Shown in pieces: positions 3,421 through 63,958 of a stretch of DNA of 64,000 nucleotides (positions are counted from its first letter, which is position 1; the number at the start of each line of letters is the position of its first letter). The DNA comes from Deltaproteobacteria bacterium (GTDB lineage: Bacteria; Myxococcota_A; UBA9160; UBA6930): positions 65,065 through 129,064 of the forward strand of contig VGRF01000010.1 in assembly GCA_016875395.1 (NCBI GenBank), given 5' to 3'. Under the pieces are notes generated by a model. That model did not search any database and was not told the origin of the DNA. It was given only the letters and a program-made list of their open reading frames with translations. The position numbers were made by a program, and so were the translations under genes.

Positions 3421-4590
3421 ATGGCGGGCGTGAAGGTCGTCGATCTCACGATCGCGCTCTCCGGACCGTGGGCGATCGGATTGCTCGCGGATCAGGGCGC
3501 GGAGGTGATCAAGATCGAGCCGCCGGGGATCGGCGACATCGGGCGCTGGGTGGGCGTCGCGCGCGGCGGCGTCTCGGCGATGGCGCAGTTCGCGAATCGC
3601 GGGAAGCGCTCGCTGTGCGTGAACCTCCAGACCGACGAGGGGCGCGACATCGTGCGCGCGCTGGCAATGCGTGCCGACGTGTTCGCGCAGAACTTCCGGC
3701 CCGGCGTGATCGAGCGATTAGGGCTCGGCTACGACGAGCTGCGTCGCGACAACCCAGAGCTCGTCTACCTCTCGATCAGCGGCTTCGGCGACACGGGCCC
3801 CTACGCGGAGAAGAGCGCCTACGACCCTGTCGTGCAGGCGTACGGCGGCCTCGCCGCGACGCAGGCCGGGCGCGACGGACCGCCGCAGCTGATTCGGCAC
3901 ACCGCAGCCGACAAGATCAGCTCGCTCACCGCGTCACAGGCCGTGACCGCCGCGCTCTTCGCGCGCGCGAACGGGCGCGGCGGGCAGCACGTGCGCGTGC
4001 CGATGCTCGACGCAGTGGTGAACTTCGTGTGGGCCGACGCCGCCGGGAACGAAGTGCTGCTCGACGCGGATCACTCGCAGCCTTCGAGCTTCGCGCGCGA
4101 CCAGAAGCTCTGGCCGACGAAGGACGGCTTCGTGATCGCGGCGCCCACCGGCGACGAGGACACGGCGCGCATCTGCCGCGCCGCGGGCGTCGACGGTTAC
4201 GACGACCCGCAGACGAAGCTGATGCAGCGCCGCGCGAACCCCGGCCCGTTCCAAGAGTTGTTAAGGCGCGTGCTCGAGAGCGTGGCGCAGATGACGACCG
4301 CCGAGGCGATGGAGCGCTTCGATCGCGAGAAGGCGCCTGCCGGCGCCGTGCTCGGGCCCGAGTCGCATCACCTCGATCCGCACGTCGCCGCGACGGGGCT
4401 CCTGGAAGACAGCGTGCACCCCGCCGCGGGCCGCGTGCGCCAGCCGCGTCCCGCCGCGCGCTTCGAGCGCACGCCCGCGCGCATCGGCGCGCCCGCACCG
4501 ACGCTCGGGCAGCACACGGACGAGATCCTGCGCGAGCTCGGCTTCGCGGATCGCATCGCCGCGCTGCGGGAGAAGAAGGTGGTGGCGTAG
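3421..4590 (+). CDS. Family III CoA-transferase (CaiB/BaiF type)
   Basis: Internal ATG (codon 114) of ORF 3082..4590. MAGVKVVDLTIALSGPWAIGLLADQGAEVIKIEPPGIGD is the typical N-terminus of this family. Confidence 0.85.
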   Translation: MAGVKVVDLTIALSGPWAIGLLADQGAEVIKIEPPGIGDIGRWVGVARGGVSAMAQFANRGKRSLCVNLQTDEGRDIVRALAMRADVFAQNFRPGVIERLGLGYDELRRDNPELVYLSISGFGDTGPYAEKSAYDPVVQAYGGLAATQAGRDGPPQLIRHTAADKISSLTASQAVTAALFARANGRGGQHVRVPMLDAVVNFVWADAAGNEVLLDADHSQPSSFARDQKLWPTKDGFVIAAPTGDEDTARICRAAGVDGYDDPQTKLMQRRANPGPFQELLRRVLESVAQMTTAEAMERFDREKAPAGAVLGPESHHLDPHVAATGLLEDSVHPAAGRVRQPRPAARFERTPARIGAPAPTLGQHTDEILRELGFADRIAALREKKVVA

Positions 4591-4596
4591 GGCGGC

Positions 4597-4648
4597 AGCG
4601 AACGTTCGAACTTCGCTCGCCTGCGGCTCGCTGCGCGCTCCGCTTGCG
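4597..4648 (-). repeat. Intergenic repeat family, copy R2 (inverted, partial)
   Basis: The reverse complement reads GCGCAAGCGGAGCGCGCAGCGAGCCGCAGGCGAGCGAAGTTCGAACG. Confidence 0.65.
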
Positions 4649-5518
4649 CTACCCGAGCTTCTTCGTCAGCAGCTCGCGGCCCGTCGCCGTGAAGCCCTCG
4701 GCGAGATAGAGCCGCTGCGCCTCGTTGCCTGGTTCCACCTCGAGATGCAGCTGCCGCACGCCGCTCGCACGCGCGTCGGCCTCGAGCGCGCGAAGCAGCG
4801 CGCGGCCGAGTCCGCGCCCTCGCGCGTCGGGCGCGACGTAGAGCTCGTCCACGAAAGCGTCGCGGCCGCGAAACTCGATCGAGTGCCCGAAGCAAAGCGC
4901 CGCGTAGCCGAGCGCGCGGCCGTTCTCGCGAGCGACGAGCATGCTCCCGCGCTGAGCGACGCCGAGGAGCTCGAGCACGGCGCTGCGCAGCGCGTCGTCG
5001 CCGGCGGCGTAACCCTCCTCGCGCTGGAATGCGTCGACGAGCGGCAGCAGCTCGGGGAGGTTGTTAGGCGCCGCGCGCTCGATCGAGACGCCAGTGGGCG
5101 CCTCGAACGCGCCGGCGTCGCCCGCCAGCCGGCGCCAAGCGATCGCGCCGAACACGAGCGCCGCGATCTCGCCAGCGTGCAGCGCAAAGCCGAGTGCGTT
5201 CGGCGCACCCGCGAGCGCGAAGCTCACCACGCGCGCGCTCGCGAGCCCCGCGTAGAGCAGGAGCTGCGCCGCGAGCCCGACGCGCACGAGCGCTTCGTTC
5301 GCGCGCGCCGCGAGCGCGAGCAACAAGCCGCACGCGAGCTGCAGCCCGCCATACACCGCGCGCACGTCGTTGTCCGCGGTGGCGCCGCTGAGCGCGAGCC
5401 CGACGCGCTCCGCGAGCGCATGGGGCGCGAGCAAGAACGCGGCGCCGATCGCGAAGAAAGGCAGCGCGCTCGCGGCGAGCACGAAGCGGGCGAAACCGAT
5501 GCCGCGCGTGCGACTCAC
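4649..5518 (-). CDS. Fusion protein: N-terminal 4-helix membrane domain (DUF4345-like) + C-terminal GNAT N-acetyltransferase
   Basis: 289-aa ORF. The first roughly 125 aa are hydrophobic helices. The C-terminus reads VDELYVAPDARGRGLGRALLRALEADA (GNAT motif A, acetyl-CoA loop). Confidence 0.75.
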   Translation of the reverse strand: MSRTRGIGFARFVLAASALPFFAIGAAFLLAPHALAERVGLALSGATADNDVRAVYGGLQLACGLLLALAARANEALVRVGLAAQLLLYAGLASARVVSFALAGAPNALGFALHAGEIAALVFGAIAWRRLAGDAGAFEAPTGVSIERAAPNNLPELLPLVDAFQREEGYAAGDDALRSAVLELLGVAQRGSMLVARENGRALGYAALCFGHSIEFRGRDAFVDELYVAPDARGRGLGRALLRALEADARASGVRQLHLEVEPGNEAQRLYLAEGFTATGRELLTKKLG

Positions 5519-6042
5519 CGGACGCGGGCAGAGAACGTCGCGAAGAGGACTTCACCGACGACGCGGTCCGGCGGAGGAGCGAGTGGCGTCGCACTCGTCA
5601 CTGCCCGAAGCGTGCTGCGCGCCGCGGCATCACTCGTCGAGCTGAGAACCCTCGCGTAGGTGACACAGCCGTTCGCCGCGACCTGGAACTCCATCTCGAC
5701 CGTCGCGCTGACCGAGGTCGGCCCGGTCCAGTGGCGAAGGACTCGGGCCCTGCCGGCGCGCAGATAGGCTTCGGCCTCGCGTTTGTGCTCGTCCGGCGTA
5801 CGGACCCCATACGTGCTTTGCACGGCAGCGGGCAGCACCGCATCACGCCCAGGCGGCGGTGGACTCGGGGGGCGAGGCTGCGCCGCGGCGCCGTTCGAGC
5901 CAGCGAGGGGGTCGGTTCGTCCGAACGAGTAGGCCTCTTCGCGCGTGATCGGCGTTTCACGAAGATCCGGGCACGCGATGCGCGGGGGATTCGCGCAGGC
6001 GATGCACGCGAGTCCGAGGAGTGCGAAGCGTCGAGACCTCAT
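5515..6042 (-). CDS. Putative lipoprotein, unknown function
   Basis: Internal ATG (codon 37) of ORF 5515..6150. MRSRRFALLGLACIAC is a signal peptide with a lipobox-like LAC, followed by a Pro-rich linker. Confidence 0.55.
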   Translation of the reverse strand: MRSRRFALLGLACIACANPPRIACPDLRETPITREEAYSFGRTDPLAGSNGAAAQPRPPSPPPPGRDAVLPAAVQSTYGVRTPDEHKREAEAYLRAGRARVLRHWTGPTSVSATVEMEFQVAANGCVTYARVLSSTSDAAARSTLRAVTSATPLAPPPDRVVGEVLFATFSARVR

Positions 6043-6073
6043 AACAACCTCGCGGCCGAAGCTATCACGCGCC

Positions 6074-8043: not shown

Positions 8044-8535
8044 ATGCACCGCACCGCACTCTTTTCGCTCGCCGCCGCCGGGCTGCTCGCCGCAACGCTC
8101 GCCTTCGCCTTCGCCGACGCCGCGAGCGTCGACTACCAGACCGGCTATCGCGAGTGGACCCACGTGAAGTCGATGGTGATCGAAGAGGGCCACCCGCTCT
8201 TCGCGAGCTTCGGCGGCATTCACCACCTCTACGCGAACGAGAAGGCGATCGAGGGCTACCGCGCGGGCAAGTTTCCCGACGGCGCGGTGATCGCGTTCGA
8301 TCTGCTCGAAGCCGCGCGCGCCGAAGGCGCCGTGACCGAGGGCGCACGCAAAGTGCTCGGCGTGATGCAGAAGGACGCCGCGAAGTTCGCTGCCACCGGC
8401 GGCTGGGGCTTCGAAGGATTCGCGGGCGGCGACGCGACGAAGCGCGCCGTCGGCGCGAACGCGGTGGAAGCTTGTTATGGCTGCCACGCGTCGCAGGCGG
8501 ATCGCGACTACGTGTTCAGCGCGTGGCGCGAGTGA
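8044..8535 (+). CDS. Cytochrome P460-family haem protein
   Basis: Has a signal peptide and a single C-terminal CYGCH haem-c motif. YREWTHVKS...GIHHLYAN is typical of P460. Confidence 0.7.
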   Translation: MHRTALFSLAAAGLLAATLAFAFADAASVDYQTGYREWTHVKSMVIEEGHPLFASFGGIHHLYANEKAIEGYRAGKFPDGAVIAFDLLEAARAEGAVTEGARKVLGVMQKDAAKFAATGGWGFEGFAGGDATKRAVGANAVEACYGCHASQADRDYVFSAWRE

Positions 8536-10750: not shown

Positions 10751-11182
10751 TCAGCTCGCGACGAGCCCGAGCGCGGCGATCGCTGCTTTCGCCACTTCGG
10801 CGTCGCGCGCCTGGTCCGCGCCCGAGACGCCGATCGCGCCTAACAAGAGCCCGTTCTCGACGACGGGGTAGCCGCCGTCCGCGCCGATGTAGCCCGGGAT
10901 CGCGTGGATGATTTGCTGCTCGCTCGCCGGGATGCTCGCGACGTACGCGCCCCAGGCGCGCGTCGACATGCCCGTATTCACCGCGGTGAACGCCTTGTCG
11001 CGCGCGGTGTTCGCGGCGATGCGCGGCGCGCCCTCGAAGCTGAGCCAGCCCGCGAGCTGGGCCGACGAATCCATCACCGCGATGTGCACGCGGATGCCCA
11101 GCGCGCGCGACTTCGCGGCGGCGGCGTGGATCAGCTTCTCGGTCGCTTCGGTGCTGAGCGTGGCGCGCGGTGCGCTGTTCAT
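10751..11182 (-). CDS. GlcG/HbpS-like haem-binding protein (DUF336)
   Basis: Last 143 codons of ORF 10751..12310. GGYPVVENGLLLGAIGVSGADQARDAEVA is the family signature. There is a 4-nt overlap with the upstream P450. Confidence 0.7.
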   Translation of the reverse strand: MNSAPRATLSTEATEKLIHAAAAKSRALGIRVHIAVMDSSAQLAGWLSFEGAPRIAANTARDKAFTAVNTGMSTRAWGAYVASIPASEQQIIHAIPGYIGADGGYPVVENGLLLGAIGVSGADQARDAEVAKAAIAALGLVAS

Positions 11183-12420
11183 GGCGTGGCTCCTCGTCGC
11201 GGTTCGTACGTGATGTGCAGCGCGCGCAGCGTACGCAGCGAGAGGCCGGGCAGATACTCGGGCGCGAAGCCGGGCGCGAGCGCGATGCGGTCGAGTCGCT
11301 CGAGTAGCGCGGCGAACGCGAGCTGAAGCTCGAGCCGCGCGAGCGGCGCGCCAATGCAGTGATGCTCGCCTTGGCTGAAGGCCATGTGCGCGCCGGCGTT
11401 CGGGCGCTGCAGATCGAGCGCGTCCGGGTTCGCGAACACCTCGGGATCGCGGTTCGCGGCGGCGAAGCGCACGTGCACCATCGCGCCGCGCGGAATCAGG
11501 GCGCCGCCCACGACGCCGTCGGCCACGGCGAAGCGGAAGAAGCCCTGGCTCGGCGACTCGAGCCGCAGCACTTCCTCGACGAAGGTGCGCAGCAGCGCCG
11601 GCTCGCGGCGCAGCTCGTCCGCGACGTCGGGGCGCTGCGCCAATAACAACACGCCCGATGCGATGGCGCTCGTCGCCGTCTCGTGCCCGCCCACGAGCAG
11701 GTGCTCGGCGATGCCCATGCGGTCCGTGGGGGTGAGACGCGAGCCGTCCGGCAGCGTGTCGTGCACCAAGTCGCTGAGGATGTCCTCGCGCGGCGCGTGC
11801 TCGCGCTCGGCCATGCGCGCAGCGAGGTAGCGCTGCAGCTCGAGCCCGAGCCGCGCCACTTCGAGCTCGCGTTCGAGCGTCAGCGTGAAGCCGAGCGGCT
11901 CCACCCACGCGTCGCTCCACGCCTTGATGCGCGGCGCGTCCTCCGGCGGAAGCCCGAGGCGATTCGCGATCACGTGAATCGGCAGCGGCGCCGCGAAGCG
12001 CGCGATCAGCTCGCACGCGCGGGAGTCGAGCAGCGCGTCCGCGAGGCGCGCCACGATCGCGCGCAGAAACGGCTCGCTCGCGCGCACACGGCCCGCCGTG
12101 AACGACGTGTTGACGAGCGCGCGAAAGCCGCGGTGCTCGGGCGGATCGGTCTGCAGCTTCGTGTTGCGCGCGAAGCCCTCGCGCGCGAGCAGCTCCGCCG
12201 CCTCCGCGTGGCGGAACATCGAGAAGCCCGCCTTGCCGAGCAGGTCGTTCGACCAGATCTCGGGATGCGACAGCACGTGCTGCACGTCGCGATAGCGCGT
12301 CACGACCCACGCGTTGATCTCGGGCATGAAGTACACGCCGTGCTCGCGCAGCGCGGCGTGGTAGGCGTACGGGCTCTGCTGCACCGCGGGATCGAGCAAG
12401 CTCGCGTCGCTGGGCTTCAT
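11179..12420 (-). CDS. Cytochrome P450
   Basis: Internal ATG (codon 145) of ORF 11179..12852. Contains GGHETT (I-helix), ESP (ExxR region) and FSQGEHHCIGAPLA (Cys-ligand loop). Confidence 0.9.
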   Translation of the reverse strand: MKPSDASLLDPAVQQSPYAYHAALREHGVYFMPEINAWVVTRYRDVQHVLSHPEIWSNDLLGKAGFSMFRHAEAAELLAREGFARNTKLQTDPPEHRGFRALVNTSFTAGRVRASEPFLRAIVARLADALLDSRACELIARFAAPLPIHVIANRLGLPPEDAPRIKAWSDAWVEPLGFTLTLERELEVARLGLELQRYLAARMAEREHAPREDILSDLVHDTLPDGSRLTPTDRMGIAEHLLVGGHETATSAIASGVLLLAQRPDVADELRREPALLRTFVEEVLRLESPSQGFFRFAVADGVVGGALIPRGAMVHVRFAAANRDPEVFANPDALDLQRPNAGAHMAFSQGEHHCIGAPLARLELQLAFAALLERLDRIALAPGFAPEYLPGLSLRTLRALHITYEPRRGATP

Positions 12421-15837: not shown

Positions 15838-17379
15838 TCAAGGCCGCATCGAGTAAACCCGCGGCCCTGACAACCCCCGCAGCTCTCCCTGCACTTCCTC
15901 CACCCACGCGCACAGCCGCGGGCGCGTCTCGCGCGGGTCGATCAGCTCGTGCACGCCGAACTCCTCAGCCCGCGGAAACACCGACTGCGCCGCGGCCATT
16001 TCCTCTTCCAGCTCGCGCCGCCGCGCCTCCGGATCCGGCGCCGCCGCGATCTCCTTGGCGAACGCGAGATGCACGCCGCTCTCCACCGGCAGCGCGCCGC
16101 TCGCGAGCGACGGCCACGCGAGCACCGTGCAGCTCGGGCCGTAATGAATCCCCTGCGCGACCCCGAACGACTTGCGCAGCACCACCGCGATCCACGGCAC
16201 GCGCGTCTGCTGCACGGCGAAGAGCGCCTCCATGCCGTAGCGGATCGTGCCCGCCTTCTCGGCGTCGGGGCCGATCAGGAAGCCCGGCTCGTCGACGAAG
16301 CTCACGATCGGCAGATGAAACGCGTCGCACGTCTCGACGAAGCGGCGCAGCTTCTGCGCGCCGTCGGCCGACATGCCGCCCCCGTAGATGTTGGGGTCGT
16401 TCGCGATCACGCCGACGGGCTGGCCCGCGATGCGCGCGAGTGCCGTGACCTGCGTGCGCCCGTAGAGCGGCGCGATCTCGAACAGCGAGCCGGAGTCGAC
16501 GACGTGCTCCAGCAAGCGGCGCACCTTGTACGTCTTGCGGCGATCGCGCGGGATGAAGCTCAGCAGCGCTTCTTCCGCGCGCGCTGCGGGATCGCTGCAC
16601 ACGAGGCGTGGCGCGGGCTCCCACACCGAGGGCGGGAGGTACGAGAGGAACGCGCGGATCTGGCGCCACGCGTCGGCTTCGTCGGCGGCTTCGTTGTGCA
16701 CGACGCCACTTCTCAGGTGGACCGCGGGTCCGCCGAGCTCCTCCTTCGTGAATTTCTTCCCCATCGCGCGCTCGACCAGCGCGGGGCCGCCGGTGAGCAC
16801 GACCGCGGTGTCGCGAGTCATTAGGGAGAAATGCGACGCGGTGAGGCGGCCGGCCGGGAAGCCTGCGCACGGGCCGAGCGCGGCGCACACGACGGGCACT
16901 TCGGCGAGCGCCTGCATCGCGAGCAGGTTCATCGGGCTCGGGGCTGTTAAGTCGTAGCCCGAGCGCCCGCGCGCGCCGTACGCGCCGGACACGCTGGCGC
17001 CGCCGCCTTCGAGCAGGCGCACGAGCGGCATGCGGCGGCGGATCGCGAGGCCCTCGGCGTGCTGGATCTTCTTGAGGCTCGCGGGCGTGTAGGCGCCGCC
17101 CTTGATCGTGAAGTCGTCGCCCGCGATCACCGCGGCGCGCCCGCCGACCGTCGCGGTGCCGGCCACGATGTTCGTGGGCGAGAACGCGCCGCCCTCGGCG
17201 ACTTCGCCCGCGATCTCGCCGACCTCGCGGAAGCTGCCCGCGTCCGCGAGCGCGTCGATGCGCTCGCGCACCGTGCCACGCCCGCGCGACTTGTGCTTCG
17301 CCACCGCCTCCGCGCCGCCGAGCGCGTGCGCACCGCGGCGCCGGCGCGCGATCTCGTCCGCCTCGTCCTGCCAGCTCAT
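15838..17379 (-). CDS. Acyl-CoA carboxylase carboxyltransferase (beta) subunit, propionyl-CoA carboxylase-like
   Basis: Internal ATG (codon 22) of ORF 15838..17442. GKRGTVRERIDAL-like N-terminus, GGAYTPA, and a PLVRLLEGGGA / GPCAG / IANDPNIYGG pattern. Confidence 0.85.
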   Translation of the reverse strand: MSWQDEADEIARRRRGAHALGGAEAVAKHKSRGRGTVRERIDALADAGSFREVGEIAGEVAEGGAFSPTNIVAGTATVGGRAAVIAGDDFTIKGGAYTPASLKKIQHAEGLAIRRRMPLVRLLEGGGASVSGAYGARGRSGYDLTAPSPMNLLAMQALAEVPVVCAALGPCAGFPAGRLTASHFSLMTRDTAVVLTGGPALVERAMGKKFTKEELGGPAVHLRSGVVHNEAADEADAWRQIRAFLSYLPPSVWEPAPRLVCSDPAARAEEALLSFIPRDRRKTYKVRRLLEHVVDSGSLFEIAPLYGRTQVTALARIAGQPVGVIANDPNIYGGGMSADGAQKLRRFVETCDAFHLPIVSFVDEPGFLIGPDAEKAGTIRYGMEALFAVQQTRVPWIAVVLRKSFGVAQGIHYGPSCTVLAWPSLASGALPVESGVHLAFAKEIAAAPDPEARRRELEEEMAAAQSVFPRAEEFGVHELIDPRETRPRLCAWVEEVQGELRGLSGPRVYSMRP

Positions 17380-18170: not shown

Positions 18171-19439
18171 CTACGCGCGCTCCTCGCGCGCCACGGCGGC
18201 GAGGTCTTCGCGGACGCTCGCGGCGCAGCGGAAGAAGAGCGGGCCCGAGAGCGCGCCGATCGCGGCGGGCAGGAGCAGCGTCCAGCGCAGCGCAGCGTCG
18301 GCGTACTCGGCGAACAGCACGTCGTTGAGCTTGCCGACGAGCGCGACACCGAGGCCGTAGCCGAACACGTTCGTGACGGCGAGCTGCGTCGCGGACGACG
18401 TGGCGCGCAGGCGCGCCGGCACGAGCGACTGCACCAGCGTCCAGAGCGAGGGCACGTAGATGTTGTTGAGGAAGTAGAAGACGCCGAAGCACGCGAGCGC
18501 GAGCGCCGCGCTCTCGACCCGTGCGAACGCCGCGAAGAACGGCGCCGCCGCGAGCGACACGCCGCCCGAGAGCCACGCGTACCAGCGCGCGTCGCGCGTG
18601 GAGAGGCGATCCGCGAGCACGCCGCCGAGCAGCGAGCCGGCGGCGCCCGCGATGCCGGCGGTGAGCCCGAACGCGATTCCGGACTCCGCCTTGTTCATCG
18701 CGAACACGCGCTGCAAGAAGAGCGCGCTCCACGAGAGCGCGGCGTAGCCGATGAACGCCTGGCACGCGGCTGCGAGCATGAGCCAGCGATACGTGCGCTG
18801 CTCGAACAGGACGCGCGTCATCTCGCGCAGCGGCGCGTGCTGGGCGCTCGCTGCGATGCGCTCGGGCTCGCGCACGCTGAAGGCGATCACCAGCGCGAGC
18901 GGCACGCCTGATAACCCCGCGACGAAGAACGCGGTGCGCCAGTCGAACCACTCCGCGATCACGCCGCCGCCCGCGAATCCGAGCAGCGTTCCGACATAGA
19001 TGCCGAGGCCGAACACGCTGAGCGCTCGCGCGCGCTGCTGGGGCGGGAAGTAGTCCGACAGCATCGACTGCGAGGGCGGTGCGCCCGCGGCTTCGCCGAT
19101 GCCGACGCCGAAACGCAGCGTCGCGATCTGCCAGAAGTTCGTGGCGAGCCCGCAGGCGGCGGTGAGCAGGCTCCACACCGTGAGCCCCGCCGTCAGCACG
19201 CGCTTGCGCGAGCGCGTGTCCGCCCAATGCGAAACCACGAAGCCCGAGAGCGTGAAGCAGAGGACGAACGCCGGGCCTAACAAGAGGCTCAGCTGAAAGT
19301 CCGTGAGCGCGAGCTCCTTCTTCACGTCACCCGCCACGATCGCGAGCACTTGGCGGTCGACGAAGTTCAGCACGTACGCGAGCGAGAGCAGCGCGAGTAC
19401 CCAGAGCGAGTACGCACGGGTCGGCTTCGAGTCGGGCAA
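18171..19439 (-). CDS. MFS transporter
   Basis: C-terminal 422 codons of ORF 18171..20375, with 12 hydrophobic helices and the VDRQVLAIV / GRLSDR-like ADRLSTRD motifs. There is no in-frame ATG; TTG at 19439 is proposed. Confidence 0.7.
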   Translation of the reverse strand: MPDSKPTRAYSLWVLALLSLAYVLNFVDRQVLAIVAGDVKKELALTDFQLSLLLGPAFVLCFTLSGFVVSHWADTRSRKRVLTAGLTVWSLLTAACGLATNFWQIATLRFGVGIGEAAGAPPSQSMLSDYFPPQQRARALSVFGLGIYVGTLLGFAGGGVIAEWFDWRTAFFVAGLSGVPLALVIAFSVREPERIAASAQHAPLREMTRVLFEQRTYRWLMLAAACQAFIGYAALSWSALFLQRVFAMNKAESGIAFGLTAGIAGAAGSLLGGVLADRLSTRDARWYAWLSGGVSLAAAPFFAAFARVESAALALACFGVFYFLNNIYVPSLWTLVQSLVPARLRATSSATQLAVTNVFGYGLGVALVGKLNDVLFAEYADAALRWTLLLPAAIGALSGPLFFRCAASVREDLAAVAREERA

Positions 19440-25723: not shown

Positions 25724-26647
25724 CTACGACCGCTTCCGTACCCACGCCCCGATCTCGTCGATCGCGGCGTTCGCCTCGGGCAGGAACGGCGCGAACGCGT
25801 GCCACACGTGCGGCATCTCGGGGTAGATCGCGAGCGTCGCGTCGACGCCCGCGGCCTTCGCCTTCGCGGCGATGCGCGTCGAGTCGTCGAGCAGCACCTC
25901 GTGGTCGCCGACGTGGATCAGCAGCGGTGCGATCCCGCGTAGGTCGCCGTTCAGCGGCGAGCACAGCGGCGAGAGCGGGTCGGCGCGGCCCTGCGTGTAG
26001 ACGGCGCCCATCGCCTGAATGCCTTCGCGCACGCCGGGGATGACAGGATCGAGCGCGGCGCGCGTGCCGTAGGAATCGCCACTCGCGCTGAAGTCGGTCG
26101 CAGGCGAGATCGGGATCGCGCCGGTTGGCTGCGGGAGGCCGCGCTCCTTGCACGCGAGCAACGTGGCGAGCGTGAGGTTGCCGCCCGCGGAGTCTCCCGC
26201 GATGAAGATCGCGCGCGCGGGCGCGGCGCCGTTCGGGCCGTTGTTACGGAGCCAGCGGTACGCGTGCACGCAGTCGTCGAGGCCCGCCGGAAACGGATGC
26301 TCGGGCGCGAGGCGATAGTGCACGGCGAGCACCGCGACCCCCGCAGCCTTCGAGAGGCGCGCGCTCAGCGGGCGGTGCGAGTCGAGGTTGCCCGCGGTCC
26401 AGCCGCCGCCGTGGATGTAGAGCAGGCGCTTGTCAGGATCTGCGCCCTTCGCCACGAGCCACTCGCAGGCGACCCCCGCGAGATCGATGCGCTTCACGTC
26501 GGCGACGAGCTCCTGCGTCGAGCCGTCCACCTTCCAGTAATCGTTCACTGCCGCACGCGACGCTTCGATGTCCGCGCCCGCAGCGGCCATGCGCTTCGCG
26601 AGCGCGCGGAGATGAGCATCGACTTGCTTGGCTTGGGGGCTGGCCAT
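25724..26647 (-). CDS. Alpha/beta hydrolase, HSL/Aes-type esterase-lipase
   Basis: YIHGGGWTAGN (oxyanion HGGG), GDSAGGNL (nucleophile elbow) and C-terminal D...H. Confidence 0.8.
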   Translation of the reverse strand: MASPQAKQVDAHLRALAKRMAAAGADIEASRAAVNDYWKVDGSTQELVADVKRIDLAGVACEWLVAKGADPDKRLLYIHGGGWTAGNLDSHRPLSARLSKAAGVAVLAVHYRLAPEHPFPAGLDDCVHAYRWLRNNGPNGAAPARAIFIAGDSAGGNLTLATLLACKERGLPQPTGAIPISPATDFSASGDSYGTRAALDPVIPGVREGIQAMGAVYTQGRADPLSPLCSPLNGDLRGIAPLLIHVGDHEVLLDDSTRIAAKAKAAGVDATLAIYPEMPHVWHAFAPFLPEANAAIDEIGAWVRKRS

Positions 26648-27154: not shown

Positions 27155-27192
27155 CTAACAGCTCGCACCAGCATGCGGCATCGAGCGGCGCC

Positions 27193-38557: not shown

Positions 38558-39991
<1,434 letters not shown>

Positions 39992-49477: not shown

Positions 49478-51217
49478 ATGCCGACTCATCAACTTCCGCC
49501 GCTCGGGCACAACCCCTCGTCGCGCGCGCAGGGCACGACACCCGGCAGCTTCGCGAACGTGCCCGACATCGGCGGCCCGCGCAGCTTCAGCTCGCCCGAC
49601 ACGCCGGGCATGCCTCAGCCTTCGGAGAAGACCGCGTGGCACTTCTTGCCGCGCGGCTGGAAGCGCGACGCGGCGACCGGCTTTGCGACTGCGCCGGCGG
49701 GCTTCGAGCCTTCGACGCAGCTCGAGTTCGCGCGCCTCGGAGTTGTTACGGCGCAGATGCGCCGCGTCGCCGAGCGCGAGCCGCACCTCACGCCCGAGCA
49801 GGTGCGCGACGAGGTCGCCGCTGGGCGCATGGTGATTCCCGCGAACAAGGTGCACCTCGGCTACGCGCTCGACCCGATGGCGATCGGCCGCGCCAGCACG
49901 ACCAAGGTGAACGCGAACATGGGCGCGTCGCCGATTTCGAGCTCGACCGACGAAGAGGTGGAGAAGCTGCGCTGGGCCGAGAAGTGGGCGGCCGACACCG
50001 TGATGGATCTCTCGACCGGCGGAAACCTCGACGCCACGCGCGCCGCGATCATCAGGGCCTCGACCGTTCCGATCGGCACCGTGCCGATCTACTCGATGAT
50101 CATCGGGCGCAAGATCGAGGATCTCGACGAGCGCATGATTCTCGACGGCCTCGAGCATCAGGCGAAGCAGGGCGTCGACTACATGACCGTGCACGCGGGC
50201 GTGCTGCAGGGGCACCTGCCGTTCGTGCAGCGGCGGCTGATCGGCATCGTGTCGCGCGGCGGCTCGCTGCTCGCGAAGTGGATGATCACGCACGGCAAGC
50301 AGAACCCGATGTACACGCTGTGGGACGACATTTGCGAGATCCTGCGGCGCTACGACGTGACGTTCTCGATCGGCGACGGCCTGCGCCCCGGCGGCCTCGC
50401 GGACGCGACCGATGCCGCGCAGCTCGGCGAGCTCGAGACGCTCGGCGAGCTCACCGAGCGCGCCTGGCAGCACGGTGTGCAGGTGATGGTCGAGGGTCCG
50501 GGGCACGTGCCGTTCGATCAGATCGAATACAACATGAAGCTGCAGCGCCGGCTCTGTCACGGCGCGCCGTTCTACGTGCTCGGGCCACTCGTGACGGACA
50601 TGTTCCCCGGCTACGACCACATTACGAGCGCGATCGGCGCGACGGCCGCCGCGTATCACGGCGCCGCGATGCTCTGTTACGTGACGCCGAAGGAGCATCT
50701 CGGGCTCCCAAAGAAGGACGACGTGAAGCAGGGCTGCGTCGCCTACAAGATCGCGGCGCACGCGGCCGACGTGGCGCTCGGCATTCCCGGCGCGCGCGAT
50801 CGCGACGACGAGCTGACGAAGGCGCGCGCCGCGCTGAACTGGGAGCGCCACTTCGAGCTGTCGTTCGATCCCGATCTCGCGCGCGCGTACCACGACGAGG
50901 ATCTCGACGTCGACACCGACTTCTGCGCGATGTGCGGGCACGACTGGTGCTCGGTGCGCATCAGCAAGGAGATCAACCAGTTCGTGAGCGGCAAAGACGA
51001 GAAGTACGCGTGGGCGTCGCCGAAGATCTCCGCGGCCCTCACCAGCGAGCAGAAGGCGGTGCTGGAGAAACGCGGCGTGCTGTCGGCCGCGGAGATCCAC
51101 CGCCTCGCGAGCAAGACGCGCGCGAAGGTCGGCGCCGACCACGGCGAGAAGGCGGCGTGCCACAGCGACGTCGCATCGCCCGAAGAGGCGCAGCGCCTGC
51201 AAGGCGATCCAGCCTAA
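49478..51217 (+). CDS. thiC: Phosphomethylpyrimidine synthase
   Basis: Internal ATG of ORF 49406..51217 after [25 protein letters not shown] and C-terminal [10 protein letters not shown] (CxxCxxxxC cluster). Confidence 0.95.
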
Positions 51218-51370
51218 CAACTCGCGTGAGCCGAGAAGCAAAGCCACGAGGCGCGTGAACGCCTCGGGGCTCGCGGCTTCCGGACCTCACCCCCCAGCTC
51301 GGTCCGGTTACGTGGTCGTAACTTCGGCCGATCTGCGCTCGTCTTGAGTGAAATTTTCGGAGATTGCGCG

Positions 51371-54214: not shown

Positions 54215-54862
54215 GTGACCTTTTCGCTGCCGATCTTCCCGCTCGCGGGCCCAGCGCTTTTCCCCCACTGCGCGGCGCCGCTGCACATCTTCGAGCCGCG
54301 CTATCGCGCCATGGTGGCCGACGCGATCGCGGGCGAGCGGCGCATCGGCATGGTCACGGTGCGCAGCGACGCGCTGGGCGAGATGTCCGGGGATCCGCCG
54401 GTGTTCGCGATCGGCTGCGCGGGCTTCATCGCGCAGCATCAGCGCCTCGCGGACGGCCGGTACCTAATCACTCTGCAGGCGACCTCGCGCTTCCGCATCG
54501 TGAGCGAGCTGCCGCGGCCCGCGGACCGGCTCTATCGCATCGGCAAGGTCGAGCTGTTAGGGGAAGAGCTCGGCGACGAAGCGCGCGCGCGAGCGCAGCG
54601 CGACGAAGTCGTACGCGAGCTGCGCGAGCTGCTCGGCGATGCCGGCGCTGGAGGCGAGCTCGATCTCGCGCGCATCGAGCAGCTCGAGCTCGGGCGCTTT
54701 GCCGGCGAGATCTGCCAAGCGCTGCAGCTGCCTGGCCCCGAGAAGCAGGCGCTGCTCGAGGCCGCGACGACCGAGCAGCGGATTGAACGGCTTGCGCAGA
54801 CGCTCGCCTTCTATCGGACACTGAGCCGCGCGCCTGGGGGCGACGGCGCCACGCTGCACTGA
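54215..54862 (+). CDS. LON substrate-binding (Lon N-terminal) domain protein
   Basis: LPIFPLAGPALFPHCAAPLHIFEPRYRAMV. GTG start. Confidence 0.7.
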   Translation: MTFSLPIFPLAGPALFPHCAAPLHIFEPRYRAMVADAIAGERRIGMVTVRSDALGEMSGDPPVFAIGCAGFIAQHQRLADGRYLITLQATSRFRIVSELPRPADRLYRIGKVELLGEELGDEARARAQRDEVVRELRELLGDAGAGGELDLARIEQLELGRFAGEICQALQLPGPEKQALLEAATTEQRIERLAQTLAFYRTLSRAPGGDGATLH

Positions 54863-56793: not shown

Positions 56794-56819
56794 AAGGGGA
56801 GGCGCTGTCTCCTGACCGC

Positions 56820-58079: not shown

Positions 58080-59281
58080 CAGGCAGCCTCCAGGCTCATG
58101 CGCGGGCGCGCGTAGAAATCGCCGGTCGCCGCGCGCTGCACGGCCTCGTACACGTTCGGCTCGAAGAACTCGGGCTTGCGCGCGTGGCGCGGATACACCG
58201 GCAGGCGCTCGACGAGGCGCTTGCCGTGCGCCTCGGTGCGCGCGCGCAGATCGCGCAGCGCAGGCCACGGCGCTTCGGGGTTGATGAAGTCGACCGTCAC
58301 CGGCGAAACGCCGCCCCAGTCGCTCACGCCGGCGGCGAGCAGCTCGCCGAACGACTCGGGCGAGAGATTCGGCGGCGCCTGCACGCTGATCTCGCGCCCC
58401 AGCACGAGCCGCGCGAGCGCCGACCAGTCCGCGACCTCGGCGTCCGTCACCGCCGCCGCCCAGCGCATGCGCGTGCCGGGCTTCGGGTGGAAGGGCTGGA
58501 TGATCGCTTCTTGGATGTGCCCGTAGCGATCGTCGAGCTCGCGCATCGCGATGAGTGTGTCGACGCGCTCCTCGAGATTCTCTCCGATCCCTAACAACAT
58601 GCCCGTGGTGAACGGAATCTTCAGCTCGCCCGCCTCGGCGTGCATGCGCAGCCGCAGCGCCGGGTCTTTGTCGGGCGCGTACTGATGCGCCATGCCCTTG
58701 CCGCGCAGGCGCGGGCTCACGGACTCGAGCATCAGGCCCATCGACGCGTTCCAGTGGCGCAGCGCCGCCATCTCTTCCTGCGTGAGGATCCCGGCGTTCG
58801 TGTGCGGGAGCATTCCGCCCTCGAACGAGACGCGGCAGCCCTGCACGAGATACTCCGCGGTGCTGCGGTAGCCGACGCCCGCAAGCCACTCGCGATACGA
58901 CCGGTAGGCGATCTCGGGCTTGTCGCCGAGGCAGAACAGCGCCTCGATGCAGCCCGTGCGCACGCCGCCGCGCGTCACGTCCGCGACTTCTTCGAGCGTG
59001 TAGGTCTTCGCCTCGGGCGAATCGTCCTGCTTCGCGAACGTGCAGTAGGCGCAGCGGTCGCGGCACAGGTTCGTGAGCGGGATGAAGACGTTGCGCGAGA
59101 ACGTGACCGCGTCGCCGAGCACGCGGCGCGTGCCCTCCGCCGCCGCCTCGAACACGGCGCCGCGCACGCTCGCGTCGCGCATGTGCTCCGCGAGCCAAAC
59201 CGCATCGGCGCGGGCGAGCCGCCCCGCTTCGAGGGCGTCGCGGGAAATGGCTTGCGCTTGCGCGGAGTCGGGGGAGGTCAC
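58079..59281 (-). CDS. cofG: FO synthase subunit 1 (CofG)
   Basis: ORF 58079..59458. Radical-SAM CRDRCAYCTF, plus FTTGMLLGIGE. GTG at 59281 is chosen because the longer ORF overlaps the upstream gene; the start is uncertain. Confidence 0.8.
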   Translation of the reverse strand: MTSPDSAQAQAISRDALEAGRLARADAVWLAEHMRDASVRGAVFEAAAEGTRRVLGDAVTFSRNVFIPLTNLCRDRCAYCTFAKQDDSPEAKTYTLEEVADVTRGGVRTGCIEALFCLGDKPEIAYRSYREWLAGVGYRSTAEYLVQGCRVSFEGGMLPHTNAGILTQEEMAALRHWNASMGLMLESVSPRLRGKGMAHQYAPDKDPALRLRMHAEAGELKIPFTTGMLLGIGENLEERVDTLIAMRELDDRYGHIQEAIIQPFHPKPGTRMRWAAAVTDAEVADWSALARLVLGREISVQAPPNLSPESFGELLAAGVSDWGGVSPVTVDFINPEAPWPALRDLRARTEAHGKRLVERLPVYPRHARKPEFFEPNVYEAVQRAATGDFYARPRMSLEAA

Positions 59282-61135: not shown

Positions 61136-62950
61136 ATGCCCCTAGGGCGAGCCACGAATCCCGACCTGCGCGCCTGTGAATCGCGGGCGAGGAGACGCGG
61201 TCCCGCGTGCTGGCGCCTCGATCGGCACGAAAGCGGAGGCAGAAGCCGCCTTCCATCCGGGGTTGAAGGGTTCATTTGCACGCAAGTTGCGGTCAAGAGG
61301 GCTTGCGGGGATGCCGATTCAAACCGCGACGTTGACTCGACACCGATCAGCCGCACGCCGCTCATCGCGTGGCTCCGCCAGAGCCTCGCGCGCGATCTCG
61401 CCGTGCTCGTGGTCGGGCTGTGCCTGGTCGCCGCAATCGTCACCGCGCTGACGTCGCGTGAGGTGCTAGACACCGCAGTTCGCCACGGCGTTCGTGCGGA
61501 GCTCGAGCGGGAGTTCGATCGTGCGCAAACCGCACTGCAGCTCTCGCGAAGACAAGAGTTCGAGGGAGCGAACGTAATCGCGCGCGACGATCTGCTGCTC
61601 GAATGCCTCGCACGCGGCAGCGAAGGGCACAGCGCCTTGCGGGCGCGGCTAGAGGTGCTGTTCGCGCGCGAGCCCGAAGCCATCGGCTTTGCGCTGGCTC
61701 GGCCCGGCGCGCGCGAGCCCTTCGTCATGGTCGGCCAGTGGGGCCGCTCGCACTGGCAGTTCGCGCTCGCACAGCGCACCTCCGCGGGCAGCTCCGTTGC
61801 CGCGACAGAGGTCGAAGGCGCTCCGATCGACCTCGCGCGGATCGCGATTGCGACGCGCGACGGGTCCGTGCTGCTGTGGATCGCGTTCGATCCGCTGCGC
61901 GCACTCGACGTGCTCTACGACGAGGGCCAGATCGACGCCGCGATCACGGGCGCGCGAGGAGACAAGCTCGCCGGCTCCCTCGCCGCGTCTGCGCTCACGC
62001 GCGAGATCGGCTTCCGCGACGCCAAAGGATCCGATGGCGCACCGCTGCTCGTGCTGCGTCGCGAGCTCGCCGGAACGCCGTGGCAGCTCGTCATCGCGCG
62101 TCCGCTGCCCGCGCTTCCGGCAAACACGCTGCTCAGCCTCGTGCTCGGGAGCGTTCTCACGGCGGTCGTCGCCGGGGGCCTCGCGTTCGGCGTCGGCGCG
62201 TGGCGCCTGCGCCCGCTGCTCGATCTCGCCGAGGGCGCGGGCCGGCTCGCCGGCGGCGACTTCAACGTGCGCATGCCCGTGAGCGAAGCGCACGACGAGG
62301 TGCAGACGCTCGCGCGCGCGTTCAACGACATGGCCGCGCAGCTCGAGGGCCAGCGGCGTGCGCTCGAGGAGCGCAACCGGGATTTGTTACGGGCGAACGA
62401 GGTACTCGAGCAGCTCTCGATCACCGACGGACTCACCCACCTCCACAATCACCGCCACTTCCACGACCAGTTCTCGCGCGAGGTGAAGCGCGCCGACCGC
62501 AGCGAGCAGCCGCTTTGCCTGCTGCTCGTCGACATCGACGACTTCAAGCTGCTGAACGACCGCTACGGCCACGCTGCGGGCGACCGCGTGCTCGCGGCGG
62601 CCGCTCAGCTGATCAACCTGCAAATCCGCGAGTCGGACTACGTCGCCCGCTACGGCGGAGAGGAGTTCGCGCTGCTCCTGCCACACACGCCCCTCGAAGG
62701 CGCCACCGCGCTCGGCGAGAAGATTCGGACCGCGATGTCGGAGCACGAGTTCCCGATCGAGGAGCGCGACATCGTCGTGCGCGTGACGGTCTCCGTGGGT
62801 GTCGCGCTCTACTCCACGACCACCGACGAGACCTTCGATGCCGCCGATCGCGCGCTGTACGAGGCGAAGGCCGCGGGCAAGGACTGCGTCTTCACGGCGG
62901 CGCCGCTCGATCGGACGCCGGCTCCATCTCCGCTGAAGCGCCGCCGCTGA
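61136..62950 (+). CDS. Membrane sensor diguanylate cyclase (periplasmic domain-HAMP-GGDEF)
   Basis: Two TM helices, HAMP (LAGGDFNVRMP...EVQTLARAFNDMA), I-site RESD and active site GGEEF. The start is uncertain; ATG 61136 lies only 36 nt from the divergent reductase start. Confidence 0.8.
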   Translation: MPLGRATNPDLRACESRARRRGPACWRLDRHESGGRSRLPSGVEGFICTQVAVKRACGDADSNRDVDSTPISRTPLIAWLRQSLARDLAVLVVGLCLVAAIVTALTSREVLDTAVRHGVRAELEREFDRAQTALQLSRRQEFEGANVIARDDLLLECLARGSEGHSALRARLEVLFAREPEAIGFALARPGAREPFVMVGQWGRSHWQFALAQRTSAGSSVAATEVEGAPIDLARIAIATRDGSVLLWIAFDPLRALDVLYDEGQIDAAITGARGDKLAGSLAASALTREIGFRDAKGSDGAPLLVLRRELAGTPWQLVIARPLPALPANTLLSLVLGSVLTAVVAGGLAFGVGAWRLRPLLDLAEGAGRLAGGDFNVRMPVSEAHDEVQTLARAFNDMAAQLEGQRRALEERNRDLLRANEVLEQLSITDGLTHLHNHRHFHDQFSREVKRADRSEQPLCLLLVDIDDFKLLNDRYGHAAGDRVLAAAAQLINLQIRESDYVARYGGEEFALLLPHTPLEGATALGEKIRTAMSEHEFPIEERDIVVRVTVSVGVALYSTTTDETFDAADRALYEAKAAGKDCVFTAAPLDRTPAPSPLKRRR

Positions 62951-62956
62951 AGATCC

Positions 62957-63958
62957 CTAATAGGTCTTCGGCTCTCGCCGATAGCGAGGCCGCGGCTCGC
63001 CCGGCGGCTGCGTGCGCCAGCGGCGGTGCGCCCACGTCCACAGCTCCGGCGCAGCGCGGATCTCCGCCTCGACCGCGCGGGTCATCTGCCGCACGTTCGC
63101 GGCGAGCGATGCGTCGTCGTCGCGCGAGCGCTCGATGTCGAGCGCGGGGTAGAAGCGCGCGACGTGGCGCGCGGGATCCATCGCGTCTCGGTGCAAGAAC
63201 ATCGGCACGATCGGCGCGCCGGTGGACATCGCGAGCTGCGCGGGGCCGCTGCGCGTGCAGGCGAGCCTTCCGAGGAACGGGACGAAGATTCCCTCGTCCG
63301 CGCCCACGTTCTGGTCGAGCAGCAGCGCGAGCAGGCTGCCCTTGCGCAGCGCGCGCACTACGCCCAGCGCGGCGCTCCCGCGCGGCAAGTACGTCGCGCC
63401 GCTCTCGGCGCGGCGGGCGACGATCACCTCGTCGAGCCCCGCGTCGTCGCGCACGCGGTGGACGACGGTGAGCGGGTAGCCGCGCGCGGTGAGCACGGCG
63501 GCGAAGAGCTCCCAGGAGCCGAAGTGCGCGGTCATCACGATCACGCCGCCGCCGGGCGCCGCAGCGCGCGCCGCGTCGAGATGTTCGAGGCCCTCGAAGC
63601 GCACGCGCGCGAGCACCTGCTCCGGCGAGCGGCGCCCGAGCCACGCGAGCTCGACCAAGCTGCGGCCGAGATTCTCGAACGAGCGCACGAGCCCGCGCGT
63701 TCGCCGAGCTTCGCTCCACTCGGGAAACGCGATGCGCAGATTGATCCGCGCGTCGCGCGTGCGCGGCAGCCCGAGGCGCGCCCAGCTGCGGCCGGCAAAC
63801 GCGCCGAGCGCGAGCGCCGCGTCGTCGGGCAGCTGCGCAACCGCCCATAACAACCCACGCGCAGCGACGCCTCGCAGGCTGGATCGCGGCGGCTCCTTCG
63901 CGTCGCGAGCGCTCAGACGAGCCCCAGCGAGCGCTCGAACTCCTCGAGCTCCGCCCAC
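62957..63958 (-). CDS. LpxL/HtrB-family lysophospholipid (lipid A late) acyltransferase
   Basis: IVMTAHFGSWE (HX4E-like motif), LLLDQN and a C-terminal WxWxHRRW motif (WTWAHRRWR). Confidence 0.7.
   Translation of the reverse strand: MGGARGVRALAGARLSARDAKEPPRSSLRGVAARGLLWAVAQLPDDAALALGAFAGRSWARLGLPRTRDARINLRIAFPEWSEARRTRGLVRSFENLGRSLVELAWLGRRSPEQVLARVRFEGLEHLDAARAAAPGGGVIVMTAHFGSWELFAAVLTARGYPLTVVHRVRDDAGLDEVIVARRAESGATYLPRGSAALGVVRALRKGSLLALLLDQNVGADEGIFVPFLGRLACTRSGPAQLAMSTGAPIVPMFLHRDAMDPARHVARFYPALDIERSRDDDASLAANVRQMTRAVEAEIRAAPELWTWAHRRWRTQPPGEPRPRYRREPKTY

Follow-up and report, generated by a model that had tools for sequence, protein, structure and literature searches.

An asymmetric AT-rich DNA word accumulated around dnaA in a narrow clade of high-GC, uncultured Myxococcota

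Why should a hexamer with five A or T positions recur throughout DNA that is 70.6% G+C? The question is raised by a 64,000 bp stretch of contig VGRF01000010.1 (positions 65,065 to 129,064; hereafter, the window), which derives from freshwater-lake metagenomes and whose organism was placed in the uncultured Myxococcota by ThiC and DnaA searches. A sequence-only reading of the window, made without database searches, had reported at least 27 copies of TTGTTA or its complement, TAACAA. Our exact recount found 15 TTGTTA and 12 TAACAA, 27 in total, at the coordinates that had been listed except for one (38572, which should be 38571). TTGTTA proved to be the main form of an asymmetric 8 bp motif, YTRTYANG (Y, pyrimidine; R, purine), that has accumulated at approximately one copy per 1.5-2.4 kb in five lineages: the window organism and four relatives, L178, L181, L007 and L091 (together, the carriers). 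We consider it very probable that this is a real, clade-specific motif that is driven or selected at the DNA level.

The word, its minor forms and its placement

Dinucleotide-preserving shuffles of the window gave 1.14 copies of the word (maximum 4; 27 reached in 0 of 100 shuffles), and Markov models of order 0, 1, 2 and 3 predicted 3.1, 1.0, 0.47 and 2.35 copies. A synonymous codon shuffle of 53 genes, which preserves the proteins and the codon usage of each gene and hence also the rare codons contributed by the sites themselves, gave 3.14 copies (sd 1.04, maximum 7; 27 reached in 0 of 1000). A Markov model of order 4 predicted 8.25 copies, a figure that is inflated because the pentamer counts stem mostly from the word itself. 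The excess, first put at approximately 10-fold, is 9- to 27-fold, and the nulls that the sequence-only reading had named beforehand as the check, a synonymous shuffle and Markov models, yield 0.5-3.1 copies (orders 0-3 and the shuffle) rather than about 27. No hexamer in the window is more strongly over-represented than TTGTTA. Composition, codon usage and relaxed G+C content at third codon positions (GC3) are ruled out as causes by the Markov, dinucleotide and synonymous-shuffle nulls, together with outgroups of lower GC3 that show no enrichment: GC3 is 0.85-0.89 in the carriers, and in two non-carriers with GC3 of 0.79 (L011) and 0.82 (L015) the word occurs only at expectation, such that relaxed GC3 is not the explanation.

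An assembly, sequencing or planted artefact is ruled out by separately assembled contigs (JGI, Logan and ENA; several samples) that are 99.98-100% identical to the window, words included, and by the sharing of sites with related species; no single-nucleotide polymorphism between population contigs falls inside a motif site. The enrichment continues beyond the window. There are six further TTGTTA in the first 5.35 kb to the left, two TTGTTA and three CTGTTA in the next 9.65 kb, and one TTGTTA and one TTATCAGG in 2.6 kb to the right, giving 36 TTGTTA in 81.6 kb of continuous sequence from the same organism. This sequence surrounds dnaA (55,246-56,628 of the window), and it was sampled for enrichment together with the equivalent regions of relatives, everything lying within approximately 75 kb of dnaA; across 70 kb, TTGTTA density is no lower away from dnaA.

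A logo pooled from 86 ingroup sites reads Y-T-R-T-Y-A-N-G, with T2, T4 and A6 invariant, transitions accepted at positions 1, 3 and 5, and G at position +2 after the hexamer in 91%. The motif is asymmetric rather than palindromic, and nothing else, including a second half-site, is conserved within 20 bp on either side of the 86 sites. A longer repeat, a mobile element or a conserved flank is ruled out, since conservation ends at positions 1-8 and the sites are substitutions inside conserved genes. For the 27 copies of TTGTTA, the flanks first described were borne out: position -1 is G in 17 copies, C in eight and T in two, and 23 copies have G at position +2.

The minor forms are CTGTTA, TTATCA, TTGTCA, TTATTA and CTATTA. 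Words were counted in 109 kb from the carriers and in 300 kb from syntenic high-GC relatives; the counts, carrier to relative, were 41:0 for TTGTTA, 15:1 for CTGTTA, 15:0 for TTATCA, 4:0 for TTATTA, 3:0 for CTATTA and 8:1 for TTGTCA followed by NG. CTGTCA and CTATCA show no enrichment, and their occurrences may be background. Within the window, TTGTCAGG occurs six times where 0.2-0.5 copies are expected, and the YTRTYA-N-G family as a whole has 43 members where 11.1 are expected (maximum 20). The proposal that the excess is specific to TTGTTA thus holds only in part. TTGTTA is indeed the top hexamer, and as bare hexamers in the window its 18 one-mismatch variants show no clear enrichment; the highest of these, CTGTTA and TTGTTG, are each only 2.5-fold above dinucleotide expectation, and TTGTTG/CAACAA, for which about 10 copies had been estimated, was recounted at a nearby 13 (8+5). 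TTGTTA is, however, only the dominant form of a family.

A further hexamer, ATTAGG/CCTAAT, is likewise carrier-specific, with 15 copies in the 109 kb of carrier sequence and none in the 300 kb of outgroup sequence; L181 has six copies. It occurs at window positions 3717, 16820, 22774, 45877, 54463 and 62956, and also in L007, L091 and L181. Its variable 5' context puts it outside the YTRTYA family; either a second word or a shortened form (TTA-G-G) is possible. The general oligonucleotide signature of the carrier clade also differs from that of the syntenic outgroups, the carriers being markedly richer in CGCG, GCGC and TCGCGA-type words (CGCG, 8676 observed versus 5742 expected).

We placed the sites on gene models that combine public gene calls with the G+C signature of the three codon positions (GC1/2/3); by these models, 88.6% of the window is coding. 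As the sequence-only reading had it, the copies of TTGTTA are mostly intragenic, in several frames and in both orientations: 25 of 27 lie inside genes, which are unrelated, and there are six frame/orientation classes. In-frame TTG-TTA (Leu-Leu) accounts for 15 copies, antisense xxT-AAC-AAx (x-Asn-Asn/Lys) for five, G-TTG-TTA-C read as Val-Val-Thr for two, xxT-TGT-TAY (Cys-Tyr) for two and antisense GTA-ACA (V-T-T) for one; the other two lie at or outside gene ends, one overlapping an ATG start and one giving the TAA stop codon of ThiC. The 27 copies are as follows.

4258..4265, plus: TTGTTA-AG, in-frame Leu-Leu (TTG TTA), CoA-transferase gene
5061..5068, plus: TTGTTA-GG, antisense to a minus-strand gene, ccT AAC AAc (P-N-N)
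6040..6047, minus: TTGTTA-TG, intergenic/5' end; word ends on the start-codon A (ATG) of gene 5515-6042 (minus), downstream of a GAGG Shine-Dalgarno sequence
8472..8479, plus: TTGTTA-TG, gcT TGT TAT (A-C-Y), cytochrome P460 gene
10259..10266, plus: TTGTTA-TG, in-frame Leu-Leu
10839..10846, minus: TTGTTA-GG, in-frame Leu-Leu, HbpS-like gene
11644..11649, minus: TTGTTA followed by TT, without +2 G, in-frame Leu-Leu, P450 gene
13281..13288, minus: TTGTTA-CG, in-frame Leu-Leu, P450 gene
14386..14391, plus: TTGTTA followed by TT, without +2 G, in-frame Leu-Leu, alcohol dehydrogenase-like gene
19276..19283, minus: TTGTTA-GG, in-frame Leu-Leu, MFS transporter gene
21660..21667, minus: TTGTTA-TG, in-frame Leu-Leu, MFS transporter gene
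24337..24344, plus: TTGTTA-GG, in-frame Leu-Leu near the 5' end of a WS/DGAT gene; TTG is the first possible start of the open reading frame (ORF)
26241..26248, plus: TTGTTA-CG, antisense, cgT AAC AAc (R-N-N)
27467..27474, minus: TTGTTA-CG, in-frame Leu-Leu (E-L-L-R)
29298..29305, plus: TTGTTA-CG, in-frame Leu-Leu, TetR gene
32404..32409, plus: TTGTTA followed by CT, without +2 G, in-frame Leu-Leu, RND pump gene
38117..38124, plus: TTGTTA-CG, antisense, cgT AAC AAg (R-N-K)
38571..38578, plus: TTGTTA-GG, antisense, ccT AAC AAg (P-N-K)
39601..39606, plus: TTGTTA followed by CT, without +2 G, antisense, GTA ACA Act (V-T-T)
42721..42728, minus: TTGTTA-CG, gA GTT GTT ACG (V-V-T), PKS gene
49743..49750, plus: TTGTTA-CG, GTT GTT ACG (V-V-T), ThiC; outgroups xxC/G ATC/GTC ACG
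51213..51220, minus: TTGTTA-GG, complement TAA is the ThiC stop codon
57478..57485, plus: TTGTTA-GG, antisense, ccT AAC AAg (P-N-K), cofH-like gene; conserved in L007 and L091; outgroups mostly CCG AAG/CGC AAG, with CCG AAC AAG in L009 and L011
57851..57858, minus: TTGTTA-CG, atT TGT TAC (I-C-Y), radical-SAM Cys motif; CTGTTA in L007 and L091, TGC TAC in all outgroups
58590..58597, minus: TTGTTA-GG, in-frame Leu-Leu; CTGTTA in L091, CTG CTC in L007 and outgroups
62384..62391, plus: TTGTTA-CG, in-frame Leu-Leu, GGDEF gene; relatives CTG CTG/ATG/GCG
63846..63853, minus: TTGTTA-TG, codons 1-2 (TTG start, TTA) of a lipid A acyltransferase, per public gene call

The minor variants in the window are the following.

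2303..2310, plus: TTATCA-GG, a main form in L007 and L091
14845..14852, plus: TTGTCA-GG
15866..15873, minus: TTGTCA-GG
16944..16951, plus: CTGTTA-AG
18907..18914, minus: TTATCA-GG, in-frame TTA TCA
20793..20800, plus: CTGTTA-GG
26430..26437, plus: TTGTCA-GG
27154..27161, minus: CTGTTA-GG
34341..34348, plus: TTGTCA-GG
36766..36773, plus: CTGTTA-GG
41049..41056, plus: TTGTCA-GG
46205..46212, minus: TTGTCA-GG, in-frame TTG TCA GGG, PKS gene; orthologous site TTATCA-GGG in L007 and L091
50674..50681, plus: CTGTTA-CG, ctC TGT TAC (L-C-Y), ThiC AMLCYV motif; TTGTTA in L007, TGC TAC in most outgroups
54554..54561, plus: CTGTTA-GG, in-frame CTG TTA; TTATTA at the same position in L007
59981..59988, minus: TTATTA-CG; orthologous site TTATTA in L091, CTATTA in L007
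62956..62963, minus: CTATTA-GG

The G at +2 is present at 12 of the 15 Leu-Leu sites and at 11 of the 12 others. Given six frame/orientation classes and a +2 G that is independent of frame, the signal is a word in the DNA itself, and not a pair of codons, a peptide or a motif of the sense-strand RNA. Sites appear where the protein tolerates the word: in Leu-Leu, Cys-Tyr, antisense x-Asn-Asn/Lys and Val-Val-Thr contexts, and at start and stop codons. All three Cys-Tyr dipeptides encoded in the window carry it, as do 5 of 21 [LPHR]N[NKSR] contexts (24%) and 13 of 61 LL[RGWCS] contexts (21%).

Set against replichore and gene strand, the sites have no significant strand polarity (plus to minus, 15:12 for TTGTTA and 26:17 for the family, p=0.22). 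The family runs 23:12 to the left of dnaA and 3:5 to its right (Fisher p=0.23), a small sample in which the position of the origin is unproven; GC skew is insufficient to locate an origin within the window. Relative to transcription, the family divides 26:11, sense to antisense, and its synonymous-only subset 18:7, near the 212:151 split of synonymous-only opportunities. Six of the 43 family sites are intergenic, near the 11% non-coding share of the window; there are no inverted pairs among the 43, and no positional bias inside genes (mean relative position 0.49). Local hairpins or other structure are ruled out by minimum free energies of -20.8 at sites versus -23.1 at random positions. Spacing shows a trend towards regularity that is not significant (coefficient of variation, CV, 0.76-0.79 versus 0.95 for random sites; P=0.07-0.16). 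The view that the word is not a local regulatory site is backed by its excess over the nulls, by the six frame/orientation classes, by the lack of significant strand polarity, by the unrelated genes that hold it and by derived sites that are kept in several related species.

Three copies (63848, 24337 and 6042) fall on translation starts, which may be coincidence or an effect of the gene caller. Two pairs of consecutive copies, 4258/5061 and 10841/11644, are both exactly 803 bp apart; no repeat or homology explains this, and it is probably chance.

Carriers and the origin of their sites

The word was sought in related genomes, at loci whose distance from the window is given here by SDR, ThiC or DnaA identity.

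L178: SDR 89% in amino acids, 90.7% in nucleotides; 18 TTGTTA versus 0.35 expected in 20.8 kb
L181: SDR 83%; 8 TTGTTA versus 0.37 expected
L007: ThiC 89%, DnaA 75%; 4 TTGTTA, 7 CTGTTA and 6 TTATCA in 18 kb
L091: ThiC 87%, DnaA 73%; 4 TTGTTA, 2 CTGTTA and 5 TTATCA in 21 kb
L182: SDR 79%; without TTGTTA
L183: SDR 74%; without TTGTTA
Relatives with DnaA at 50-62% and the same ThiC-dnaA-FO-synthase order: TTGTTA absent except for one copy in L011, at expectation

Word content rises towards the window lineage, and the preferred variant differs by species: in L007, both CTGTTA and TTATCA outnumber TTGTTA, and in L091 TTATCA is about as frequent as TTGTTA. The few family words present in L182 and L183 are orthologous in position to carrier sites. 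A full-family screen of approximately 150 loci found no carrier beyond those already known. Since syntenic relatives lack the word (0 TTGTTA in 300 kb), the trait belongs to the clade and not to the chromosomal region. As to its taxonomic reach, the trait characterizes a narrow clade of uncultured Myxococcota, and is not general to high-GC Gram-negative genomes. The literature that we searched describes no such word in Myxococcota, in keeping with the sequence-only reading, which knew of no described motif of this kind, and holds nothing relevant on a methyltransferase or motif linked to TTGTTA or on myxobacterial uptake sequences.

Apparent words in three other Myxococcota loci (L079, L012 and L103) were rejected, being attributable to a Cys-repeat protein, to preferred Tyr-Phe codons and to a few operator-like palindromes. 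The protein is a very large Cys-rich repeat protein at 13100-21300 of L079, from a Polyangiaceae metagenome-assembled genome, whose repeats yield 44 copies of GCAGTT; the palindromes are three copies of ttgAATATTcaa at 11477-14587 of L103/L104, two of them 39 bp apart, in an arrangement that resembles operator sites.

Codon alignments of syntenic genes between the carriers and 11 outgroups revealed that every aligned carrier site is derived from GC-rich ancestral codons. The derived changes include TGC-TAC to TGT-TAC, CTC-GTG-ACS to CTT-GTT-ACR, CTG-CTC to TTG-TTA, CTC-ACG to CTA-ACA, and CCG-AAG or CGC-AAG to CCT-AAC-AAG. Site-making substitutions hit all six core positions and are of several types, including C>T, G>T, C>A and C>G; they are mostly synonymous, with few that alter the protein (a change from Lys/Arg to Asn in the cofH-like gene is common to all three species in the alignment), and many sites required two or three coordinated changes. 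These alignments show that sites originate in place, through point substitutions opposed to the strong GC3 bias of the genome. Since the changes fall at all motif positions, are mostly synonymous and occupy six frame/orientation classes, we conclude that the directional pressure acts on the double-stranded DNA word, and not on a codon, a peptide or an RNA. Across the carriers, TGCTAC was observed three times where 21.5 copies are expected from the outgroups, and TGTTAC 21 times where 1.1 are expected.

Sites also turn over steadily. Between the window and L007, which are 80% identical in nucleotides, only 3 of 8 and 3 of 11 YTGTTA sites are shared; in the closest pair, the window and L178, most sites in the block compared are shared. 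Among ordered pairs of the window, L007 and L091, 26 of 65 family sites (40%) are retained, and approximately 60% are not shared. This retention equals that of frame-matched control 8-mers (37%, P=0.37), yet is 4.5 times the 9% found for controls that also have A or T at the same third-codon positions (P about 1e-11, from ordered pairs that double-count approximately 32 independent comparisons). Sites are hence kept or re-created far better than other rare A/T states, without being individually fixed, and pressure for the word persists in all carrier lineages.

What might drive the word

We infer that the word is the preferred target of a putative clade-specific, sequence-reading DNA-handling protein. 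As a mechanism we tentatively favour molecular drive of the kind associated with uptake sequences, by likeness to the DNA uptake sequences (DUS) of Neisseriaceae and the uptake signal sequences (USS) of Pasteurellaceae. Fragments with the word would have an advantage in binding and uptake, through a type IV pilus or a competence receptor, for instance; incoming word-bearing fragments would be recombined into the chromosome; and variants that create or improve the word would spread. Such drive would yield a high, roughly even density, both orientations, placement by coding cost, fast turnover and species "dialects". Myxobacteria carry type IV pili, and natural transformation has reportedly been observed in Myxococcus xanthus. 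The likeness lies in a short word that exceeds expectation by approximately 10- to 50-fold or more, with a copy about every 1-2 kb, that occurs in both orientations, mostly inside unrelated genes and in the least-cost frames, that arises in place by point mutation, and that is confined to a clade with dialects among related species; the orientations, frames and dialects reported above all agree with this description. Density, orientation, low-cost frames and dialects have been described for DUS, USS and "DUES" (PMC3630211; PMC2817400; PMC1626085; bioRxiv 10.1101/2025.10.24.684340), and it is because non-polarity, coding-cost placement, density, turnover and dialects match these descriptions that uptake-like drive is the leading mechanism.

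Several points weigh against uptake-like drive. Searches of the window with Pfam and PADLOC found no methyltransferase, nuclease, pilin or competence gene able to read or write the word, and both the uptake bias and the receptor are hypothetical here. The host phylum, Myxococcota, is also a different one. At 8 bp, with seven specified positions of which three are two-fold degenerate, the motif is shorter and less informative than DUS and USS (9-12 bp), and other lake bacteria with AT-rich DNA would contain YTRTYANG frequently, making for poor discrimination between self and foreign DNA. Uptake sequences favour frames that use preferred codons (PMC2817400), whereas an AT-rich word in a 70% GC genome needs rare codons in every frame. 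Terminators account for about half of DUS and USS copies, frequently arranged as inverted pairs (bioRxiv 10.1101/2025.10.24.684340); here, by contrast, the intergenic sites are few, and there is neither enrichment in terminators or inverted pairs nor any extra hairpin potential. In addition, the weak plus-strand excess to the left of dnaA may be real polarity, and, with sampling confined to the surroundings of dnaA, a genome-wide distribution is unproven.

The main rival explanation is that the sites bind a chromosome-organizing or nucleoid-associated protein, perhaps one that acts near the origin, such that their density is kept by natural selection and not by drive. The closest parallel is HIP1 (GCGATCGC), which, with the alternate HIPs of cyanobacteria, is a hyper-abundant intragenic word that occurs in all frames and is lineage-specific. 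HIP1 exceeds expectation 15- to 300-fold, other words take its place in some lineages, and both selection for chromosome structure and a drive by methylation and repair have been proposed as its function (PMC5861425; PMC4390886). The Myxococcota word differs from HIP1, a GC-rich palindrome with known cognate methyltransferases, in being asymmetric and AT-rich; moreover, HIP1 sites are reported to be conserved beyond controls, whereas here retention exceeds only the control matched for rare A/T, and not average sequence. That 4.5-fold excess in retention, the sharing of sites between close relatives and the roughly even density, which is a trend only, are nonetheless what selected binding sites would predict, and every carrier locus lies near dnaA, which is compatible with an origin-domain function. 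The motif also holds two pyrimidine-purine steps 3 bp apart; such steps are easily kinked, and would suit a DNA-bending protein. On the other hand, known origin-domain and partition sites are much rarer, longer and palindromic, and density does not fall away from dnaA. Per-site conservation no better than that of average coding sequence (40% versus 37%), with some 60% of sites unshared between species, fits position-independent turnover better than it fits positioned structural sites, and very weak selection on each site would have to beat a strong GC3 bias at thousands of sites. We hold this explanation to be only somewhat less likely than uptake-like drive; its precedent is HIP1, an intragenic word thought to be selected for chromosome structure (PMC5861425).

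Enzymes that act on DNA could instead produce the word as a by-product, through biased repair or conversion tied to a sequence-specific methyltransferase, with near-cognate mismatches corrected to the word as in Elhai's model for HIP or in very-short-patch (VSP) repair. Type IIG, Type III and BREX-type methyltransferases typically recognize asymmetric motifs of 6-8 bp with R/Y degeneracy, and the core word is sharply bounded in the window, where no one-mismatch hexamer is clearly enriched, as expected of enzyme-like recognition. The substrate-to-product pattern is present too: TGCTAC is depleted approximately 7-fold and CTGCTA 4-fold, and TGTTAC is up approximately 20-fold, which recalls the VSP-driven over-representation of CCWGG in Escherichia coli, where the product word is likewise raised at the expense of its one-step precursor. 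The VSP effect, however, is modest and confined to one position, where T:G is corrected to C:G; a Vsr-like enzyme acts on a single position and mismatch type, and here the enrichment is at least 25-fold and involves all positions and several mutation types, mostly GC to AT, which argues against a single-position bias of this kind. Conversion of pre-existing YTGCTA supplies at most approximately 40% of sites, many sites took two or three coordinated changes, some of which alter an amino acid, and neither a methyltransferase nor a Vsr-like gene is present in the window. Single-position, modification-linked repair bias is accordingly disfavoured, and repair bias in general strikes us as improbable, even though Elhai's model ties the abundance of HIP to cognate methyltransferases (PMC4390886); the conversion of one-step precursors such as TGCTAC may leave room for some conversion-like component. 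Chi and KOPS, like other architecture-imparting sequences, are also short, dense words that are read by a DNA-processing machine, and a polar signal of this type would be read by RecBCD/AddAB or FtsK in one orientation relative to the replication fork. The abundance of the word, about one copy per 2-5 kb, falls in the range of Chi, and the weak plus-strand excess to the left of dnaA (23:12) is reversed to its right (3:5). Known cases, though, are G-rich and strongly strand-polar, with a typical bias of 75-90%, whereas neither the overall ratio nor the contrast between the two sides of dnaA is significant in our data and GC skew gives no clear origin in the window, so we hold a Chi/KOPS-type signal to be very unlikely. 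Finally, tandem rare Leu codons (TTG-TTA), or TTA codons generally, as in the bldA-type regulation of Streptomyces, might serve to pause or regulate translation. More than half of the TTGTTA copies (15 of 27) are in-frame Leu-Leu, and TTA makes up only 22 of 18,973 codons in the window, 16 of these 22 being preceded by TTG or CTG. The analysis of frames effectively refutes this explanation: the 12 copies in other frames, antisense or outside genes are by themselves far above expectation, the +2 G and the R/Y degeneracy are present in all frames, and the identical DNA word has also been created in Cys-Tyr, Asn-Asn/Lys and Val-Val-Thr contexts. The genes that hold sites, with housekeeping and metabolic roles, are unrelated and show no positional bias of the sites inside them.

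The kind of phenomenon to which the word belongs is known; what is new, judging by the literature searched, is the word itself, its asymmetry, its AT-richness at 70% GC, the phylum and the phylogenetic build-up. Whether it is an uptake-type "self word" outside the Neisseriaceae and Pasteurellaceae that has spread by drive, or, more radically, the mark of a form of word-writing that is based on neither uptake nor methylation, is a suggestion that we make with some doubt. Hyper-abundant short words are rare, and the known cases (uptake sequences, Chi, KOPS and HIP1) each revealed a machine that reads the whole chromosome. Here the word is AT-rich in a 70% GC genome, such that each copy has a cost in rare codons and stands out clearly from the background, with a zero count in 300 kb of relatives. 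Relatives at graded distance have no copies, few, an intermediate number or many, with shifting variants, such that the origin and growth of a genome-wide word could be traced stepwise; the age and saturation of DUS, USS and HIP1 make this hard for them. The case also offers a clean test of spread by molecular drive against spread by selection, and, if the word is of the uptake type, its dialects and visible build-up would allow the birth of such a system to be reconstructed. The word could also mark this lineage for metagenome binning or tracking.

Other features of the window

The order ThiC, unknown, C92 peptidase, SprT/WLM-like peptidase, LON-substrate-domain protein, dnaA and a cofH/cofG-like radical-SAM pair is conserved (window 49406-59281), and the gene order from ThiC to cofH/cofG is common to distant Myxococcota relatives (L007, L091, L157, L102, L008, L009 and others). 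At this locus dnaA is not adjacent to dnaN, recF or gyrB. A 792-aa ORF on the minus strand (56820-59198) spans two real radical-SAM genes, 56820-58079 and 58079-59281, partly as an out-of-frame read-through. It could be mistaken for a fused FbiC-type gene, and its tblastn matches in relatives are strong owing to conservation of the DNA beneath it.

The segment 32400-38400 has a lower G+C content (0.68-0.69) and may be a more recently acquired island; it is free of TTGTTA for 5.7 kb, yet holds two minor variants. One of its products is an AAA_14/DUF4143 ATPase with a match to PDC-S01, a candidate defence family of PADLOC (E=8e-87). The 507-aa protein at 36802-38325 was considered as a reader or writer of the word and rejected, its only match being to a fragment of a Type I restriction R subunit, with no evident link to the word.

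The gene for a 2-oxoacid dehydrogenase E2 component (38558-39991, minus strand) looks split, with a 45-aa lipoyl-domain ORF (39854-39991) separate from the E3-binding and catalytic part (38558-39832). The downstream part is called at 312 aa in some public contigs and at 424 aa in others, and a frameshift, a pseudogene or a gene-calling problem is possible.

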